DNA of 39,118 nucleotides from Patescibacteria group bacterium (lineage in GTDB: Bacteria; Patescibacteriota; Minisyncoccia; Phycocordibacterales; UBA2100), in the NCBI GenBank assembly GCA_024654485.1, contig JANLHO010000004.1:1-39118 (forward strand), read 5' to 3'. The notes beneath the pieces were generated by a model, which made no database searches, had not been told where the DNA came from, and saw only the letters and a list, made by a program, of their open reading frames with translations. Made by a program: the position numbers and the translations under genes. Below, piece after piece: positions 11,119 through 18,985 of the stretch (position 1 is the first letter of the stretch; each line of letters begins with the position of its first letter).

Positions 11119-12000
11119 TTACCGAATCCCCGTATCGCATGAGAGGTCAGCCACAAGCAGCGTGTCCGGTCCAATGGTGACATTTGTCGTCCCGCAGCTG
11201 GGAAAAGGAATACCTCCTATCGCCTGAAGGACATATTCGCCCGGCGGAAGAAACACTTTGTACACGCCCTCTTTGTCTGTTTCTACTGTGGCAAACGGCG
11301 AACTCCTGGCGTTCCCTACCGCTACAACCTGCACGGTCGTCTGGTACGGCCGGTCGTCACAATCCGGATCGGGTGGATCTCGCATCACCGGACACGTCGG
11401 CCCGAGCAAAACCCTGCCGGTAACACCCGATTTGAAAGGCAGTATGCCTGTACCCTTAGGGCTGGCCTCTTTGAAGAAGACCGGTATTTCCAAAGCGTCG
11501 TCATACTGCGAAAGGCCGGATGGATTGTCCTTCTGGAGTATAAGCGTACCCCTGTTGCTGTACACGTCTTTGTCTACCGTGAAAGTGAGAGTGGCTGCAA
11601 ATGGTACGAAATCAGTGGTCATCCACTCACCGTCTGCGGTAGCGATGCCCTCTGCGATGATGCGCCCGTCCCAGTCGGTCAGAACGACCGGAAAATCTCC
11701 TTCAAAAAACCAATTCCCACGCGCTTCTCCCGAGATAGCAAGCGGACTTTCTATGGTCTGATTGGGTCGCGGTGAGTCAAGGCGAATAAGGTCGGCCTTG
11801 TCCAGCTCATTGCCGATATCTTCCGTAAAGGTCCGCTCGCCGTCGCGGCACTGCCTCGGATAAGACTCCATTACCGGATTACCCGCTGCCACGCACTCCG
11901 CAAAATCGGTAGCCTGTGTGGAGGTCTCCACGCCGAACTGCCACCAAACAAATATGGCCGCGGCGAGTACCAAGACCGCGATAGGTATAATTTTCTTCAT
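11119..12000 (-). CDS. Secreted Gmad2 immunoglobulin-like domain protein with a C-terminal beta-sandwich (carboxypeptidase-regulatory-like) domain
   Basis: Signal/TM. SPLAISGEARGNWFFEGDFPVVLTDWDGRIIAEG...GEWMTTDFVPF is the Gmad2 pattern. The C-terminus reads GRVLLGPTCP...EGVYKVFLPPGEYVLQA. Confidence 0.7.
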   Translation of the reverse strand: MKKIIPIAVLVLAAAIFVWWQFGVETSTQATDFAECVAAGNPVMESYPRQCRDGERTFTEDIGNELDKADLIRLDSPRPNQTIESPLAISGEARGNWFFEGDFPVVLTDWDGRIIAEGIATADGEWMTTDFVPFAATLTFTVDKDVYSNRGTLILQKDNPSGLSQYDDALEIPVFFKEASPKGTGILPFKSGVTGRVLLGPTCPVMRDPPDPDCDDRPYQTTVQVVAVGNARSSPFATVETDKEGVYKVFLPPGEYVLQAIGGIPFPSCGTTNVTIGPDTLLVADLSCDTGIR

Positions 12001-12006
12001 ACGTCT

Positions 12007-12864
12007 TTATCGTTCCTGACGTATGACGGAGCCATCTGCGTTGGTGCGGAAGACATTTTGCTTGCCGGCCGCTTGTGTCGTCACCTCCCATCCGGGGGTG
12101 ATAACCTGAGCGCACATCTCGTTCGCACCGGCGAGTCCCAGACAGGAGTCGGGCCACTCCCTCTCATATGCCGAGAGAATGATGACCAGTCCTTCGCTCA
12201 CTCCCGATACTTCCGCCACATGTACACGAACGGCGGCGACCGCTTCCGGAACCGGAAGATTGTGTATGCTTCCCGGAGGCGCGTTGTCGGCGGAGGTAGG
12301 GATATTGCCGTCACCGAACTCCACCGATCGCAGGATATCTTCAAAGTCGGCGCGTATCCGGTCCGTCGGCGAATTGTAGAATGCGGTAAACATATAAACG
12401 TAAGACGGAAGCGCCACCACGACGTTGTCGTTCTCATACAGCCCTGTCGCGCTGTACTTCAGACCAGTCTCGCCACCTACCGAGATCTCTGCAGTATTGC
12501 CGTCGGAGAGTTTGAAGTTGGAGAAATTGGTACCCTCCACAAAGCCCCGCGTCGTGTAGTTGTCAAGATCGTTCTGGAAAATGGTGATTGTGATCGTCGG
12601 AGGACCTTCGGTCGCCGACCGGGGGTCGGAAAAGAGCGCCCTGTTCTCCGGCGTATCTTCCGCAAGCACTATCGCATGCCGATTGCGTTCACCTGTAGTG
12701 CTACTTTCATGCGCAACAAAATATCCGGACGGATATGCGAAACTCAATCCATACTCATCGGATCGGTACGTGGCGGGAGTTATCTCCTGCGTGACAGGAA
12801 TAAAATATAAGACGCCTGCGGCGAGGATGGCTAAAGCCACGAAGGTCAGGAATAGTTTTTGCAT
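12007..12864 (-). CDS. Membrane-anchored/secreted protein, unknown function
   Basis: Start moved to MQKLFLTFVALAILAAGVLYF (ATG at 12864). The upstream 56 codons of the track ORF overlap the RluA-family gene and are not protein-like. Confidence 0.6.
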   Translation of the reverse strand: MQKLFLTFVALAILAAGVLYFIPVTQEITPATYRSDEYGLSFAYPSGYFVAHESSTTGERNRHAIVLAEDTPENRALFSDPRSATEGPPTITITIFQNDLDNYTTRGFVEGTNFSNFKLSDGNTAEISVGGETGLKYSATGLYENDNVVVALPSYVYMFTAFYNSPTDRIRADFEDILRSVEFGDGNIPTSADNAPPGSIHNLPVPEAVAAVRVHVAEVSGVSEGLVIILSAYEREWPDSCLGLAGANEMCAQVITPGWEVTTQAAGKQNVFRTNADGSVIRQER

Positions 12865-12883
12865 GCGTACATAATGCCATGGA

Positions 12884-13609
12884 TCAGGATTTTGGGAAAT
12901 CCGGCGGCAAGGGGGCGGTGAATTCGGCCTTTTGGCCGCTTGGCAGCGTGAGCGAAATACTGTGGGAGTGGAGTGCGGGGCGCGTAAAGCCGAGTATGGG
13001 CGCACATTCTGGAGCATACAGCCGGTCGGCAACTATTCCGTGGCCGATATGGGCGAGATGAACGCGGATCTGGTGCGTCCGCCCCGTCCTAGGCCGCGCC
13101 TCTACGTACGAAGCAGGTTCGCCCGTGGCGGGGTCCGACAGCTTCTCCAGAAGCTCCCACTCCGTGATGGCCGCGCGCTTGTCGCTCTTCTCGCAGACGC
13201 GCGCGTACCATCGGCGTGGCGACTCGGAACTGCGCATGATTTCTGCAACGATGATGCCCTTCTCATTTTCCATATGCCCGTGCACGTAGACGCGATATGT
13301 CTTCTCAATTCGCCGAGCTTTGAATTCACTCTTGAGATATCCGTACATTTCAGAAGTCTTAGCGACGAGCAAGACTCCGCTCGTCGTCCTGTCCAGTCGG
13401 TGCACGATTCCGTTCAGGTCAATGTTCTCGCCCTGCGGGGAGACCCACGCGCCGCCGATGCCTTTGAGCGCCGGATACTCTTTAGCGAGCCACTCGGCGA
13501 CACTCGGCTCCTCGGTGCGACCGTCGCTGTGCACGATAAGCCCTGCGGGCTTGTCTAACGCCAGCATTTCTTCGGTCTCTGCCAGTACTTTCGGCACAAC
13601 TGTAGGCAA
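12884..13609 (-). CDS. RluA-family pseudouridine synthase (no S4 domain)
   Basis: GIVHRLDRTTSGVLLVAKT (catalytic Asp motif) and RTGRTHQIRVHLAHIGH. Confidence 0.88.
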   Translation of the reverse strand: MPTVVPKVLAETEEMLALDKPAGLIVHSDGRTEEPSVAEWLAKEYPALKGIGGAWVSPQGENIDLNGIVHRLDRTTSGVLLVAKTSEMYGYLKSEFKARRIEKTYRVYVHGHMENEKGIIVAEIMRSSESPRRWYARVCEKSDKRAAITEWELLEKLSDPATGEPASYVEARPRTGRTHQIRVHLAHIGHGIVADRLYAPECAPILGFTRPALHSHSISLTLPSGQKAEFTAPLPPDFPKS

Positions 13610-13625
13610 CGTGAACCCAGGAATC

Positions 13626-14078
13626 CTAGCGCACCTTTGTGAAGGAAAGTATGTTGCCCATGCCGGAGAGATATATCATCTCAAGCGACGTATCCGTAAG
13701 CGTGAATATGGAGAAGTACAGCGGCTCTTCGCCGGAGAACGATATAGCGATAACACTCATGCCCTCCAGAGCGGAAGCGGGCACCGGAAGATCGGTTTGC
13801 GACGCGTCTACACTGGCGTACGTACCCGTCTGCGTCGCCGAAGGCACGCCTTCGTAGCTATCAGTCACAGTACCGTCAACCCTGAACTCACGCATGAATT
13901 TCGGGTCCTGGGTGGAGCGCCATGTGCCGACCAGCGCGTCCTGCGTATTTTCAGCGCCCGTTGCACTCTCCTGCGTTGCGGAAGCCTGCTGCAAAACAAC
14001 GCGATTATCGTGGAAATAATACGCGAGTCCCGCAAGGACAATCAGAACTCCTATAAGCCACCAGACAGACTTGTTCAT
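13626..14078 (-). CDS. Membrane-anchored protein, unknown function
   Basis: 150-aa ORF with an N-terminal TM (WWLIGVLIVLAGLAYYF) and a beta-rich ectodomain. No family recognised. Confidence 0.55.
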   Translation of the reverse strand: MNKSVWWLIGVLIVLAGLAYYFHDNRVVLQQASATQESATGAENTQDALVGTWRSTQDPKFMREFRVDGTVTDSYEGVPSATQTGTYASVDASQTDLPVPASALEGMSVIAISFSGEEPLYFSIFTLTDTSLEMIYLSGMGNILSFTKVR

Positions 14079-14088
14079 ATTATGTTTT

Positions 14089-14529
14089 TTATCGCTCTTC
14101 TAAATCAAGACACACCGAATTGATGCAGTAGCGCTTGCCCGTCTTGGTCGGGCCGTCGTCAAATACGTGCCCCAAGTGCGAACCGCAGCGCGCGCAGGTT
14201 ATCTCGGTGCGAGTCATTCCATGAGATGTGTCGGAGTGCTGCTCTATCGCACCCGGCAGCGCCTCATCAAAAGAAGGCCACCCTGTGCCGGAATCAAATT
14301 TCGCGTACGAAGAGAACAGTGCGTTGCCGCATGCTTTGCACTCGTAAGTTCCGTCGGCCTTTTCGTGGACGTATTCGCCGCTGAAAGGCGCCTCCGTCCC
14401 TTTCTCGCGCAGTATCTCGTACTGCTCCGGCGTGAGATTCTTCTTCCATTCTTCTTCGCTGTCCGGCATGGGTTTCTTTCCGGCAGAGACGGATCCGCCT
14501 TGGGCGGACATATTGTCAGCAGAGCTCAT
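14089..14529 (-). CDS. msrB: Peptide-methionine (R)-S-oxide reductase
   Basis: Two CxxC pairs (CKAC, CARC), GTGWPSF and [21 protein letters not shown]...RYCINS. Confidence 0.92.
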
Positions 14530-14560
14530 GGGACAATTATATCAAACCAGCTACCGATTA

Positions 14561-16357
14561 TCACTGACGTCTGGCACGCGTTCTGTCTATATCCGTAAGT
14601 TGCTGCTTACGCAAACGCACGGATTTCGGCGTTATTTCAAGATATTCGTCCTCGGCCATGACCTCCAGCCCGCGCTCTATGGTGAGCTCAAACGGCGGCA
14701 CCAGCTGTATGGCGTCGTCAGAGGACTTGGAGCGCATGTTGGTAAGCTGCTTGCCTTTGGACGGGTTGACGGTCATCTCCTCGCCCTTTGACGTGTTGCC
14801 CATGACCTGTCCTTCGTATACTTCCGACCCCGGACCGATGTAAAGGACGCCTCGCTCCTGCAGATTCCAGAGCGCATAGCCGAGAGCTTTGCCGGACACC
14901 ATGGATATCATGGAGCCCACCTGCTTTTTCTTTATCTCGCCGGCGTGATCCCTGAATCCGATGGTGCGCGAAGAAATTATACCCTCGCCCTTCGTATCAA
15001 GTACGAACTGATTGCGATAGCCCAAGAGGCCCCGGGTCGGGCCTTCAAATATGAGGCGCACCTGGTTCTCGTGAACCTTCATGTCCTTAATTATGAACTT
15101 CCGCGTCCCGAGGCGCTCTATGATGGGACCCTGATATTCCGATGGCGTGTCTATCACGACCTCTTCATATGGTTCCAGCTTCTTGCCATTCTCCTCGCGG
15201 AAAATGACCTGCGGCTGCGATACCTGCACCTCATACCCCTCGCGGCGCATGTTCTCCAGAAGAATCGCGATATGCAGCTCGCCTCGGCCGGAAACCTTGA
15301 AGGTGTCGCCTTCCGAGAAGTCCACACGCAGACCTACATTTACCTCAAGCTCGCGCTCAAGCCTGTCGCGTATCTGGCGCGATGTGACATATGTGCCCTC
15401 GCGCCCCGAGAACGGGGAACTGTTTACGAGAAAGTTGAGAGTTATCGTCGGGTCATCCACGTGGATGGAAGGCAGCGCATCCACATCGGCATTTGTGGCT
15501 ATAGTCTCTCCGATAAATATATCGGGCAGTCCCGCCACCATCACAATGTCTCCGGCATCCGCCGACGCGGCGTCTACGCGCTTCAGGCCATGAAAGGTGA
15601 AGAGCTTGGTGAGCTTGCCGTTTCGCGTCTCTCCGTTTGCTCCTTTCACGAAGACGCTATCTCCAGACTTTAAAACACCATCATAGACGCGCGCTATCGC
15701 CAGGCGTCCGAGGAAATTGTCGTATGCCAGATTGAAAGGCTGCGCACGCGCCGGCAGGGCGAGTGCTTCTTTTGAGGCGGCGGCCGGCACTCGCTCCAGA
15801 ATGGTGTCAAGAAGCGGCGTTAGGTCGGCTCCGGCCGGCGTATCGTCGGAAAGTTTCAGTTTCGCTATGCCCTGCTTGCCTATCGTGTAGACGACGGGGA
15901 AATCCGCCTGTTCGTCCGTGGCACCAAGCTCCAGAAAAAGCTCCAGCACTTGCTCCTCGCATTTGTGCGGATCGGCCGCCGGTTTATCTATCTTGTTGAT
16001 TACCACTATCGGTTTGAGGCCGAGCTCAAGCGATTTTTTCAAAACGAAGCGCGTTTGCGGCATAGGACCTTCCTGCGCGTCTACCACAAGAAGAACGCTG
16101 TCTATGGAGCGCAGAACGCGCTCCACTTCGCTGCCGAAATCGGCGTGACCGGGCGTATCTACGATATTTATTTTTGTATCCTTGTATGAGACAGCCGCGT
16201 TCTTGGAATAAATCGTTATGCCGCGTTCCAACTCAAGCGCGTTGGAGTCCATGGATACGCCCTCTTCAGCGGCCCCAGTCTGACGCAGCAGTGCATCCGT
16301 CAAGGTCGTTTTCCCATGATCGACATGGGCTATGATTGCTATATTCCTAATTTCCAT
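14561..16357 (-). CDS. typA: Translational GTPase TypA/BipA
   Basis: [27 protein letters not shown] and NKIDK, with EF-G-like domains throughout. Start placed at ATG 16357 rather than the TTG at 16384 used by the track. Confidence 0.93.
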
Positions 16358-16439
16358 AATGGTCAACGCCTGCCCCGTAGCCAACGCGTAGCGTTGTACT
16401 ATCGGGGTGCGCGATAATAGCTATGTTGCGGATTTCCAT
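16347..16439 (-). other. Relic or upstream mini-ORF that re-encodes the TypA N-terminus
   Basis: ATG at 16439 reads [30 protein letters not shown]. Its stop lies 11 nt inside typA, in another frame. See findings. Confidence 0.6.
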
Positions 16440-16448
16440 ACACAAATG

Positions 16449-16471
16449 AAAAAAGCCCCGCGCCGCGAGGC
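16449..16471 (-). terminator. Intrinsic terminator after the DsbA-like gene
   Basis: Minus strand reads GCCTCGCGGCGCGGGGC (GC-rich hairpin with one mismatch) followed directly by TTTTTT. Confidence 0.7.
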
Positions 16472-16510
16472 GTATTCCCATACTATGCCATAAAACGGCT
16501 TACGTCAATG

Positions 16511-17242
16511 CTATTTTAGCTGCGGGTCTATAACGGAGGTGAAATCCGATAGCGGTGCCGCACCGGGTATGAGGGTCTTTCCTGTGATGAATCCCGGCGT
16601 ACCCTGTATTCCGAATTTTACTCCCTCTTCGCGATTGGCGGTGATGGCGGCGTCGTACTTGTCTTGATTGGACTCAAGAGCCTGCTTCACTTTCGCGAGA
16701 TCCATTTGCGGAAGTTCCGTGCGTATCATCTCATCTATAGAGGCTGCATCGCCGAAGCCCTGATCGCCCTCTTCGTCCTGCTCCTCGTACATCGCCGTTC
16801 GGAAAGCGAAGTATTGCTCCGGATACAAATCCCAGACGGCACGCGCATATTCGGCTCCCGTAATAGAATCCTCACCCAGGAAAGGATAATCTTTGAACAC
16901 TATGCGGAGCTTGCCGGTCTCCACGTATTGTTTGATCAGGTCGGGCACGGCAGGGTCAATGGGTATCTGGGGATGGCCCACTTCCACCGCCTTGCAATAA
17001 GGGCACTGGAAATCTGCCCAGAAAGCGAGCGTGACCGGCGCATTTTTGTCGCCTATGTACGGGTCTCCGTCCGTACTCACATCCTTTATGTCTACCTTTG
17101 GCTGTGCTGCCCCGCCGACACTGGCGCCGCCTTGGCTGGATAGGCCGAAATACAATCCGCCCGCGACCAAAACACCCGCAAGAAGAATGGCGCCGGGGAG
17201 GTAGAGCTTGCTGTAATCATTTGCGCCGGACTGCGGAGGCAT
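16511..17242 (-). CDS. DsbA-family thiol:disulfide oxidoreductase, membrane-anchored
   Basis: N-terminal TM and a thioredoxin-fold CPYC active site (FWADFQCPYCKA). Confidence 0.85.
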   Translation of the reverse strand: MPPQSGANDYSKLYLPGAILLAGVLVAGGLYFGLSSQGGASVGGAAQPKVDIKDVSTDGDPYIGDKNAPVTLAFWADFQCPYCKAVEVGHPQIPIDPAVPDLIKQYVETGKLRIVFKDYPFLGEDSITGAEYARAVWDLYPEQYFAFRTAMYEEQDEEGDQGFGDAASIDEMIRTELPQMDLAKVKQALESNQDKYDAAITANREEGVKFGIQGTPGFITGKTLIPGAAPLSDFTSVIDPQLK

Positions 17243-17443
17243 AGTCGTATCATTCTACACCATATTATTGAAACGCAAACCTGCCCGCACACCAACTTTC
17301 TCATAGCTCCGTTTTGCCGTAGGCTTGGCTAACCATTTCCACAATTTCATTTCAGGGCGAATCCATTACATTCACGTATTGTTTTCGCAAAACAATGCGA
17401 AAATTGGTGTGCGGGAGTGGGGATAGTCGGGAATGGACAGCGA

Positions 17444-18985
17444 CTACAATCCTGCGAGCTGCTGGTTGAGCTTGGCGCGGGTCTTGGGTCCGACGTAGCC
17501 GTACCCGGGATTGCCCGCTTTCGCAATGCCGTATTTAATCTGAAATTTCTCCACGGCGTGGGTCGTGGCCGGCCCGAAGTAGCTGGTCTCGCGTCCGGGC
17601 GAGCCCGCTCCACTCTCGGCAACCAGCGTGTCTGTATCGGTGTTGAGGAGTTCCTGTAGCCTGCGAACGTCATCGCCCGTGGCACCGAAATCAAGTCCAC
17701 GTGTGAAAGCTGATGCGGAAGATACCGAGCCGCTGGTCGCGACCGGCTGCGATGCCACTCCTTTGAGGACTCCCCACATGTTGGGATCCTGCCCGCCGTC
17801 CAGCTTAAATATCGCGATGCCGCGCACTCCGAGCTTTTTCGCGAGCGCAACCTTCTGCGCTATGGACGCCGCGTCGGGCCAATCCATGAGACGGAACGTC
17901 AGGTGAGAGTTGTACGAGTCCGCGTACAAGGATGCGGCCGTAGCCGCCAAGAGCGCCGACATCGGCGCGGCCACGACGGGTGCCGTACCGGAATCCGTCG
18001 GCGTATATGTGAAGTGGATCTCGCCTGCGGTATTGCGCTGCGGCATCACGCCGTACTGCGCCGCAATGGGCAATGCGTAGCCCGGATTAAAAGTCCAGAG
18101 TATCTTGTAGACATAGTCGCTTCCCGCATACACCGTCACGTCATATTCATAACCGTACGTCGGGACTCCTATCAGGATCTTGCTTCTATCTATGTCCCTC
18201 GCCATCAGATTTACCACCTTTTCCACCCACAGAGGATCGGCTACCGGCGCGTAGAGTTGCGAGGAGGACGCGGCAGCCGCGCTAAGCGCCAGATCTATTC
18301 CCTGCTGATCGTACGCCATTATCTTTACGCGATCACAGTATTTGTTTATCTCCACGAGGTCGTTGGCATAGATGCCGGCGTCCGGAGGAGTGTCGGTACC
18401 GTAGTAGCGACTGCCGATCGGAGTGCGCGCCTCTATGTCGCACATCACCCACTTATTCCCCATGCGCTGATACAGACCCTTTAGAAAGGTGGAGAAGTAA
18501 TCCTTATCTGCCGCGTACTTGCCTTCAAAATCTATCTCTATGCCGTCAAATCCTTTTTCTTTCACGAGATCCGCGATTCGGTCTTCCAGAGCGATGCGCG
18601 AAGCCGTGTCGCTGAGTATCTTGTGCAGAAGTGCTCCGTTCCCTGTCATAACCGTAGGGATGACGCGAACCTTTTTCGCACGGGCCGCGGCGATGAAGCT
18701 CTTCCACGGCTCCTCGTCAAGATTGCCGTTGTCCGAAAGCGTGCCATCGTTTTTTAGCGTGTACACGAAAGGGTTGACCTCGGTGAGATCGTCAAGGTGA
18801 GGCAGGACATCAATCGTACCCGTCGCCGCGCGCCAGTACGGTATCCAGCCCGACACCTCAAACCCGCCGGATGAAGGAGTCGCGGCGGAAGCCGTGAAAG
18901 GCAGCCCCAAAAAAACGAGAGCCGTCAGTGCGACGCATCGCCCGATCATGTGCATATATATCGTCTGACGTACTGCATTACTCAT
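17444..18985 (-). CDS. Secreted glycoside hydrolase family 18 protein with a C-terminal peptidoglycan-binding (PG_binding_1-like) domain
   Basis: GFDGIEIDFEGKY (D-x-x-D-x-D-x-E catalytic motif). C-terminus reads GDDVRRLQELLN...FGPATTHAVEKFQIKYGI...GYVGPKTRAKLN. Confidence 0.85.
   Translation of the reverse strand: MSNAVRQTIYMHMIGRCVALTALVFLGLPFTASAATPSSGGFEVSGWIPYWRAATGTIDVLPHLDDLTEVNPFVYTLKNDGTLSDNGNLDEEPWKSFIAAARAKKVRVIPTVMTGNGALLHKILSDTASRIALEDRIADLVKEKGFDGIEIDFEGKYAADKDYFSTFLKGLYQRMGNKWVMCDIEARTPIGSRYYGTDTPPDAGIYANDLVEINKYCDRVKIMAYDQQGIDLALSAAAASSSQLYAPVADPLWVEKVVNLMARDIDRSKILIGVPTYGYEYDVTVYAGSDYVYKILWTFNPGYALPIAAQYGVMPQRNTAGEIHFTYTPTDSGTAPVVAAPMSALLAATAASLYADSYNSHLTFRLMDWPDAASIAQKVALAKKLGVRGIAIFKLDGGQDPNMWGVLKGVASQPVATSGSVSSASAFTRGLDFGATGDDVRRLQELLNTDTDTLVAESGAGSPGRETSYFGPATTHAVEKFQIKYGIAKAGNPGYGYVGPKTRAKLNQQLAGL

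Follow-up and report, generated by a model that had tools for sequence, protein, structure and literature searches.

What is a second, differently spelt beginning of a gene doing immediately in front of the gene itself? The question is raised by typA (bipA), the gene for a translational GTPase, on a stretch of 39,118 nucleotides (nt) from a Patescibacteria group bacterium (GenBank assembly GCA_024654485.1, contig JANLHO010000004.1, positions 1 to 39,118 of the forward strand), which we call the window. An earlier note, made from the sequence alone, had described a copy of the first 14 codons of typA lying 82 nt upstream of the real start; its coordinates hold on the minus strand, and a recount agrees that the two copies differ at 11 of 42 nt, with every difference synonymous. 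The reading that we favour, with a probability of roughly 0.7, is that the upstream copy is a typA 5' end orphaned by a small non-coding mobile element, a hairpin with a core of 41 nt. The parts of the locus are the following.

14561..16357, minus strand: intact typA/bipA gene for a translational GTPase of 598 amino acids (aa); real ATG at 16357, stop ending at 14561
16316..16357, minus strand: functional typA codons 1-14, A/T-ending (ATT AGG AAT ATA GCA ATC ATA GCC CAT GTC GAT CAT)
16347..16439, minus strand: upstream open reading frame (uORF) of 30 codons, made of the orphan start, the hairpin, VDH and YGN; its stop TAG is typA +9..+11
16358, minus strand: one-base linker T before the real ATG, which sets the uORF frame so that ATT AGG yields an in-frame TAG
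16359..16367, minus strand: orphan typA codons 12-14 (GTTGACCAT = VDH), here termed B', directly 3' of the hairpin
16368..16406, minus strand: net insert of 39 nt, inner stem CAACGC-tac-GCGTTG
16368..16408, minus strand: hairpin element of 41 nt (ACCCCGATAGTACAACGCTACGCGTTGGCTACGGGGCAGGC), with an outer stem CCCCG.TAG/CTACGGGG and a variable inner stem; it supplies 13 in-frame uORF codons
16407..16439, minus strand: orphan typA codons 1-11 (ATGGAAATCCGCAACATAGCTATTATCGCGCAC); the orphan ATG at 16439 lies where typA starts in the relative with an empty site
16449..16471, minus strand: terminator-like leader hairpin, a 7-bp stem (16471..16455) followed by T6; the T-run ends 9 nt before the orphan ATG
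16480..16508, minus strand: sigma-70-like promoter TTGACG-17-TAGTAT, directly 3' of the stop of a DsbA-like gene and upstream of the orphan start

From 16357 the functional start reads ATGGAAATTAGGAATATAGCAATCATAGCCCATGTCGATCAT, and the element stands between the His11 and Val12 codons of the orphan copy, in the GTPase G1 motif (AH^VDHGK). The insert of 39 nt that had been noticed after His11, with its CAACGC-tac-GCGTTG hairpin, can be refined to a conserved unit of 41 nt (ACCCC...GGGGCAGGC), the initial AC of which doubles as the end of the His11 codon, hence 39 nt net. The single T before the real ATG and the out-of-frame uORF ending inside typA are likewise as first described. The duplication of the start is not a matter of chance, because the ungapped match between the two flanks of the hairpin scores 13.0, against 9.5 for the 99th percentile of permuted flank pairs, and because the same codon is hit again in other organisms.

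Empty and filled sites

The closest TypA in the protein collection (94% identical) is encoded on a contig, L068, of an NCBI metagenome-assembled genome (MAG) with the same gene order, GH18-DsbA-typA-msrB. The alignment of L068 with the window is 92% identical in the flank up to position -1 and then shows an exact gap of 82 nt, with the ATG of L068 at the position of the orphan ATG. Filled sites came from a metagenome scan for the hairpin followed by GTNGAYCAY, a pattern that forced neither an orphan upstream nor an intact gene downstream. It returned four contigs (L103, L104, L105 and L106), among them two records, L104 and L106, of identical sequence over the region examined, and all have the arrangement ...IIAH / hairpin / VDH / 1-7 nt / ATG:

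L105, typA: orphan codons, hairpin, VDH, TT, ATG
L103, typA: orphan codons, hairpin, VDH, AACACTT, ATG
L104/L106, lepA: MSQHIRNFSIIAH, hairpin, VDH, T, ATGTCGTCTAAT

The same codon boundary of the G1 motif has been hit alike in the typA of three organisms and in the paralogous GTPase gene lepA. The comparison of typA 5' regions among relatives, which the earlier note had proposed, has yielded both an empty site (L068) and filled ones (L103 and L105). Since independent assemblies share the structure and the empty site is clean, the possibility raised in that note of an assembly chimera of two strains can be dismissed for practical purposes: the source is admittedly a MAG of 60 contigs, but the structure recurs in typA and lepA on independent metagenome contigs, the gap in L068 is exact, and the hairpin, as described below, shows covariation and belongs to a family found in 41 genomes, one of them in a single contig.

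Other searches were negative or uninformative. The exact junction pattern had one unrelated match among species genomes, in an Erysipelotrichaceae member, which was judged to be chance; the flank pattern had no match in metagenomes, the pattern of the hairpin plus VDH had none in species genomes, and an exact-protein look-up gave no record for a TypA of 598 or of 607 aa.

The surroundings of the orphan start bear on whether the uORF is a regulatory device of typA. Between 16250 and 16620 the only promoter-like site is that at 16480..16508, within the flank conserved in L068, and in the relatives a hairpin and a T-run of this same kind come immediately before the typA ATG. The succession of promoter-like site, terminator-like hairpin, T-run and start (16449-16508, minus strand) is shared in this order with them, and the hairpin and T-run may constitute a conserved structured leader or attenuator; the orphan start does lie 9 nt past the T-run, as had been reported. 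A dedicated typA leader peptide or attenuator, with the likeness to the TypA N-terminus being functional, would agree with a uORF that is open and overlaps the start, and with a promoter and a terminator-like hairpin upstream of it. However, an orphan typA start is missing from all the 29 other typA loci read in the genus and order, as well as from the relative with 94% identity, and the layout is shared by unrelated genes and a tRNA gene, which makes such a leader highly improbable. What survives of the regulatory alternative in the earlier note is that the orphan is an open uORF ending inside the real start.

Two further differences from L068 were seen along the same alignment. About 148 nt within 17285-17440, in the GH18/DsbA-like intergenic region, are missing from L068 (alignment gaps 17470-17231), and this stretch behaves as another insertion with an empty site. 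The TypA of L068 has 8 extra residues (within ...DNYSSSASRSQV...) that are absent from the window, corresponding to a gap of 24 nt at ~15035-15070.

A hairpin family at gene ends

Short-word BLAST and an nhmmer profile of the 39-nt insert, run against the same genome (0.82 Mb, 56% G+C; G000 in the coordinates below, where C denotes its contigs), recovered relatives of the insert on other contigs. Judged by the names of homologues, the group belongs to Patescibacteria, near Kaiserbacteria. A covariance model (R1), built from an alignment of eight copies (A1), picks out 9 strong copies and about 10 weaker ones in this genome, scores the hairpin at the typA locus at 65.3 bits (E 2e-13), and detects the family in 41 of the 61 genomes sampled from the genus, at 1-13 copies per genome and including one single-contig genome. 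Across 35 aligned copies the element is a two-tier hairpin with 90% of cells paired. Its structure is supported by covariation of the paired positions: both partners vary at 8 of 14 pairs. None of 500 shuffles attains such figures, and in slid controls the paired share is about 36%. The conserved unit of 41 nt can be written A-CCCC...GGGGCA-GGC, with the A before CCCC (position -1) present in 38 of 43 copies and position -2 variable. A search of Rfam gave no matching family, its best match being at chance level (E 8.6); the tails 3' of the hairpin have no conserved GTT core of the kind seen in integron attC sites (no integrase search was made); and a literature search found no description of such hairpin elements in Patescibacteria.

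In nearly every copy the layout is the same: the native flank and an orphan gene-end fragment, the hairpin, the next 9-14 nt (about three codons) of the gene end, a linker, and finally the complete gene end, so that the outer copy is the orphan carrying the hairpin and the inner copy the intact gene. Between B' and the intact gene end the linker measures 1-40 nt across the family, and the targets are the conserved first or last codons of genes, along with a tRNA gene. At the nucleotide level 16 of 43 flank pairs score above the 99th percentile of the permuted ones, against 0.4 expected, and many more duplications are evident in the protein. Loci with this layout in the window's own genome are typA, an SDR epimerase, transketolase, uvrB, smpB, leuS, dnaJ and tRNA-Pro(CGG); in relatives they are dnaE (3 species), smpB, rpmI, epimerases, uvrB and tRNA-Pro. 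Examples are:

SDR epimerase, own genome: orphan MAHKIVVTGGAGF, then the hairpin, then VGS; functional MKVVVTGGAGFIGS
uvrB, own genome: orphan VKKFKLTSDY; functional MSRFKLQSDY
smpB, own genome: orphan MSLVEN; functional MSLIEN
dnaJ, own genome: orphan MKSY, then the hairpin, then YDI; functional MKNYYDI
a gene duplicated at its 3' end, own genome: orphan LLNPEKYEKDKK and stop; functional LLNPDKYDKGKKS and stop
tRNA-Pro(CGG), own genome: duplicated 5' half; intact tRNA
dnaE, three species: hit at the same codon, HLH / hairpin / THS
epimerases, several, in relatives: hairpin after VVT
uvrB, in relatives: hairpin at other positions within its 5' end

Because a tRNA gene shows it too, the duplication is an event at the level of DNA that is independent of translation. 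A classical target duplication of 9 bp is out, as the hairpin is not preceded and followed by the same 9 nt.

Some individual members deserve mention. For tRNA-Pro(CGG), the hairpin and an orphan acceptor/D-arm half precede the tRNA in two species (G000:C60:19760-19923, also L107, and L065:612-765), and the 5' arm of the element (CCCCGGTAGTAC) bears a resemblance to the tRNA's D-loop sequence (ACCGGTAGTAC). Upstream of leuS (G000:C56:26974-27054, minus strand) the hairpin lies between an orphan MKR(Y) and the real start, and its 3' arm harbours a further, nested hairpin rich in GC (CTGCCCGCCGAAGCCTCGGCGCAGGCGGGC); an ATGA overlap still terminates the uORF there. A weak member (E 0.66) at G000:C28:5325-5369 (minus strand) is in frame, free of stops and without visible duplication within a long open reading frame that reads ...GGTVGL-IPRKSPAGSRGRPR-KLYEKRAKVGDYIIMLGG..., and it may be a hairpin tolerated inside a protein. 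Another hairpin family, CAGCGAACCCCGAATACAGCTTCGCCGACGGGGCAGGCAGCGAACAG, has its feet, ACCCCG...CGGGGCAGGC, in common with the typA element; it occurs as three tandem units of 37 nt at G000:C21:839-954 and as single, intergenic copies at C32:6959-7000 and C36:2568-2609.

Divergence of the copies, translation and mobility

Over 17 duplications (152 codons) the two copies differ at a proportion of 0.84 of synonymous sites (pS), which is saturated, and of 0.17 of nonsynonymous sites (pN), with serine switches between TCN and AGY codons separating the copies in uvrB, dnaE and lepA. A neutrally decaying orphan is incompatible with a clean protein at saturated synonymous sites, and the view in the earlier note that both copies evolved as coding DNA is borne out by this signature. 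Compared with the functional typA starts of other species, the typA orphans average 82% identity (90-93% at best), the same as those starts show among themselves. From their own functional copies they differ at 11, 11 and 10 of 42 nt; between species the mean is 7.4, and a difference of at least 11 is seen in only 7.9% of the pairs. Judged by these identities, both copies look like functional alleles of different lineages. Mutagenesis of the type practised by diversity-generating retroelements was considered and rejected, the changes not being specific to adenine.

In the reading of an element-orphaned typA end, two typA starts of different lineages would have been joined, or one of them later overwritten, by recombination anchored in conserved coding sequence. 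The identity between L068 and the window over 12000-18400 is a mosaic, ranging from 60 to 100% in blocks of a few hundred bases (97-100% at 18232-17873, 61-72% at 17812-17591 and 63-70% in parts of 14015-13056), which points to frequent recombination between lineages. From the orphan ATG to about +150 of typA the identity to L068 is 71-85%, as against 92% in the flank and 90-98% in the rest of typA. On sequence grounds this divergence pattern fits the import of a whole cassette together with adjoining gene sequence, anchored in the gene, so that the orphan ATG to about +150 would be imported relative to the closest relative.

Part of the same evidence might be taken for a xenologous replacement of typA by illegitimate recombination with no mobile element involved: the differences are purely synonymous, and the first ~150 nt of typA are 79-85% identical to L068 while the remainder is 90-98% identical. 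Yet the same hairpin layout stands at many genes and in many genomes, the same typA and lepA codon is struck elsewhere, and the remnant ends constantly about 9-14 nt past the hairpin; we regard replacement of this kind as improbable. The earlier note's proposal of a relic of gene replacement is thus retained insofar as the upstream copy is an orphaned, xenologue-like typA 5' end, and given up insofar as it meant a one-off replacement of the whole gene, the hairpin layout being recurrent across genes and genomes.

Several observations weigh against the reading that we favour. The typA copies give contradictory signals of polarity. The L103 orphan matches the start of its closest relative at 90.5% identity and the L103 functional copy does so at 74%, so that the orphan looks native there, whereas in the window the orphan is 71% and the functional copy 79% identical to the start in L068, neither being like an orthologue, for which about 90% would be expected. 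No good Shine-Dalgarno sequence precedes either the orphan or the real typA ATG. No hairpin of the typA family lies beside the two Y1 transposase-like genes of the own genome described below, the flanks of which are CCATGAGAT... and GTCCGAGGGTTACCCTCGGAC. Unlike in classical transposition, the hairpin is not bracketed by two target duplications but is contained in the first repeat copy, with 9-14 nt of that copy following it. Finally, young copies have near-identical repeats (14 of 14 in L059, 21 of 22 in dnaJ and 32 of 33 in L102), which suggests that the duplication was made in situ at insertion, with divergence arising later by recombination.

Attempts to settle polarity by other means gave little. 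A similarity ranking of typA starts had a Spearman correlation of ~0 and no usable phylogenetic signal. Homologue searches had best matches of 85% identity for transketolase and 82% for UvrB, and the N-termini, read for the transketolase matches only, carried no polarity signal.

The young copies lend themselves to a variant that differs from the favoured reading only in the source of divergence. In it, insertion of the hairpin would itself make a long target duplication in situ, with the copies identical at birth; they would later come to differ through selection or survivorship for dissimilar repeats, together with tracts from element-free relatives that stop at the hairpin and affect one copy each. 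The near-identical repeats speak for it, as do the strong mosaicism of the genome relative to L068 and the fact that the differences from own copies (11, 11 and 10 of 42) exceed the interspecies mean. Against it, the first codons of the functional copy already differ, yet a recombination tract needs a homology anchor there, and even the short B' (9 nt) differs just synonymously, including the TCN/AGY serine switches of dnaE. We hold this variant to be conceivable, though less likely than not.

Returning to the element-orphaned typA end, one may ask how the gene behind it would be expressed. In 23 of 30 cases at 5' ends the uORF that crosses the hairpin terminates no more than 12 nt from the real ATG, 10 of them being exact ATGA overlaps, and a stop at or near the main start, the hallmark of a coupled uORF, is thereby present in the sequence. 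In the typA of the window and of L103 the length of the linker frames the uORF in such a way that ATT-AGG in the functional copy supplies a TAG at +9..+11; in lepA, which has a linker of 1 nt as does typA in the window, the same uORF frame gives TAA at +9..+11. The functional typA next to an element has ATT-AGR in 3 of 3 cases and the orphan has CGN in 3 of 3. Because the orphan occupies the native start behind the native leader and the real ATG has no good Shine-Dalgarno sequence, termination-reinitiation coupling between the orphan uORF and typA is suggested: ribosomes would initiate on the orphan ATG, translate in frame across the hairpin, terminate on the TAG formed by ATT-AGG at typA +9..+11, and reinitiate on the real typA ATG. 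Ribosomal bypass of the T4 gene 60 type was rejected, since take-off and landing codons that match are missing and a stop closes the orphan frame.

At the uvrB loci of the genus (L078-L095) many species have a TAGAGT/TACAGT -10 box that is followed by the start after 6-8 nt, which suggests that the uvrB mRNAs are leaderless or nearly so. On such leaderless mRNAs an orphan ATG at the native position would be the only efficient entry for ribosomes.

The hairpin would be mobilised by an enzyme acting in trans, for which the HUH Y1 transposase-like genes of the genus are candidates; Y1_Tnp-like genes are present in 56 of 61 genomes of the genus, with up to 15 in a genome. Such an enzyme would bind the hairpin and cut at fixed distances, as HUH Y1 transposases do, a mode suggested by the constant distance of 9-14 nt from hairpin to orphan end and by the constant A at the 5' foot. 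In a speculative working model, a cut 3' of the new hairpin would be followed by repair that copies an intact sister or foreign gene from just outside the gene end, and the survivors would be only those events that restored an expressed gene. In the own genome two Y1 (HUH) transposase-like genes were seen, at G000:C28:10257-10484 (minus strand) and G000:C55:580-804 (plus strand), coding for 221 and 223 aa. Each has perfect palindromes of its own on either side, CCATGAGATG..ATCTCATGG and GTCCGAGGGTTACCCTCGGAC, in a manner reminiscent of RAYT genes and their repetitive extragenic palindromes (REP).

A bolder interpretation of the layout, which we offer as a tentative one, is that of a gene-specific non-coding "homing cassette" composed of the hairpin, a guide-like target copy of about 9 nt, the linker and the start. 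Such a cassette might recognise AH^VDHGK in translational GTPases, HLH^THS in DnaE and VVT^GGAG in SDR enzymes, and might spread between lineages by one-sided homologous recombination that takes its anchor in the conserved gene, with the gene end and the coupled uORF being rebuilt on each occasion. If this were true, essential genes would survive the hits, and the mode of mobility and host-gene preservation would be without a described bacterial precedent.

Significance and comparison with known systems

Were the favoured reading to be confirmed, it would mean that, in genome-reduced Patescibacteria, tiny mobile hairpins settle where the codons of essential genes (typA, lepA, dnaE, uvrB, leuS, smpB, rpmI and tRNA-Pro) are most conserved, without killing them, because each insertion brings a spare gene end and a coupled uORF. 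It would account for duplicate gene starts that look "recoded", for spurious N-terminal extensions and for small uORFs in the annotation of genomes of the candidate phyla radiation (CPR), and would make the hairpin duplications a marker for recombination between lineages. It would pose a mechanistic problem, namely which agent makes the cut 3' of the hairpin and by what route the duplication forms, and it would supply the study of termination-reinitiation with natural test cases among organisms beyond the reach of culture.

The nearest parallels might be struck with the REP/REPIN-RAYT system and the hairpin-bearing MITEs (transposable elements of miniature size with inverted repeats) of the IS200/IS605 type. 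Like these, the typA element is an imperfect palindrome of about 40 nt with a conserved foot and a variable, covarying stem; it is dispersed and non-coding, its base at the 5' junction is constant, being A in 38 of 43 copies, its 5' arm contains GTAG/GTAC, and it belongs to a genus in which Y1 transposase-like genes are common. The conservation of structure above sequence is a feature that it shares with REP. However, REP sequences are extragenic, usually placed after genes and high in copy number, whereas the element lies inside gene ends, at about 10 per genome, beside a duplicated gene end. A RAYT gene is flanked by its cognate REP, whereas the Y1-like genes looked at, those of the own genome, have palindromes of another kind at their flanks. 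The IS200/IS605-type MITE PATE has two subterminal hairpins, in contrast to one hairpin per copy in the present case. As to the insertion of such a MITE 3' of a fixed short word and with no target duplication, the typA family has an A at -1 with a variable -2, and a long duplication that is not of the classical kind. A classical MITE such as Correia has terminal inverted repeats and makes a fixed, short target duplication, while here the repeats span about 10-60 nt and the hairpin is inside the first of them.

Another comparison is with the SXT/R391 integrative elements, which reside in the 5' end of prfC, itself a gene for a translational GTPase, and supply a replacement gene end. In both cases the target is kept intact by a second copy of its end, the displaced end is orphaned, and the two ends differ like xenologues. 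Unlike SXT/R391, the typA locus has no integrase, cargo or att core: its two end copies are separated by 40 nt (the insert of 39 nt and the linker of 1 nt) with no recombinase gene or cargo between them, and the whole insertion amounts to 82 nt. The Rickettsia palindromic elements and the byp and GC-cluster hairpins of mitochondria are inserted in coding sequence, and resemble the present element in being small, hairpin-forming mobile DNA tolerated in reading frames with a net insertion in frame. These stay inside a functional protein or are bypassed by the ribosome, whereas here the interrupted copy is orphaned and an intact second end does the work.

Insertion with long target duplication, producing direct repeats of tens of bases, has been described for restriction-modification gene units (Furuta et al., PMC2853133). 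The likeness lies in repeats far longer than ordinary target-site duplications that bracket the insert; the difference is that the element has 40 nt, sits inside the first repeat, and has repeats that are often as divergent as interspecies orthologues. Set beside all these systems, the typA element appears as a small non-autonomous hairpin element with an unusual mode of insertion, one that departs from each of its nearest known kinds in defining features.

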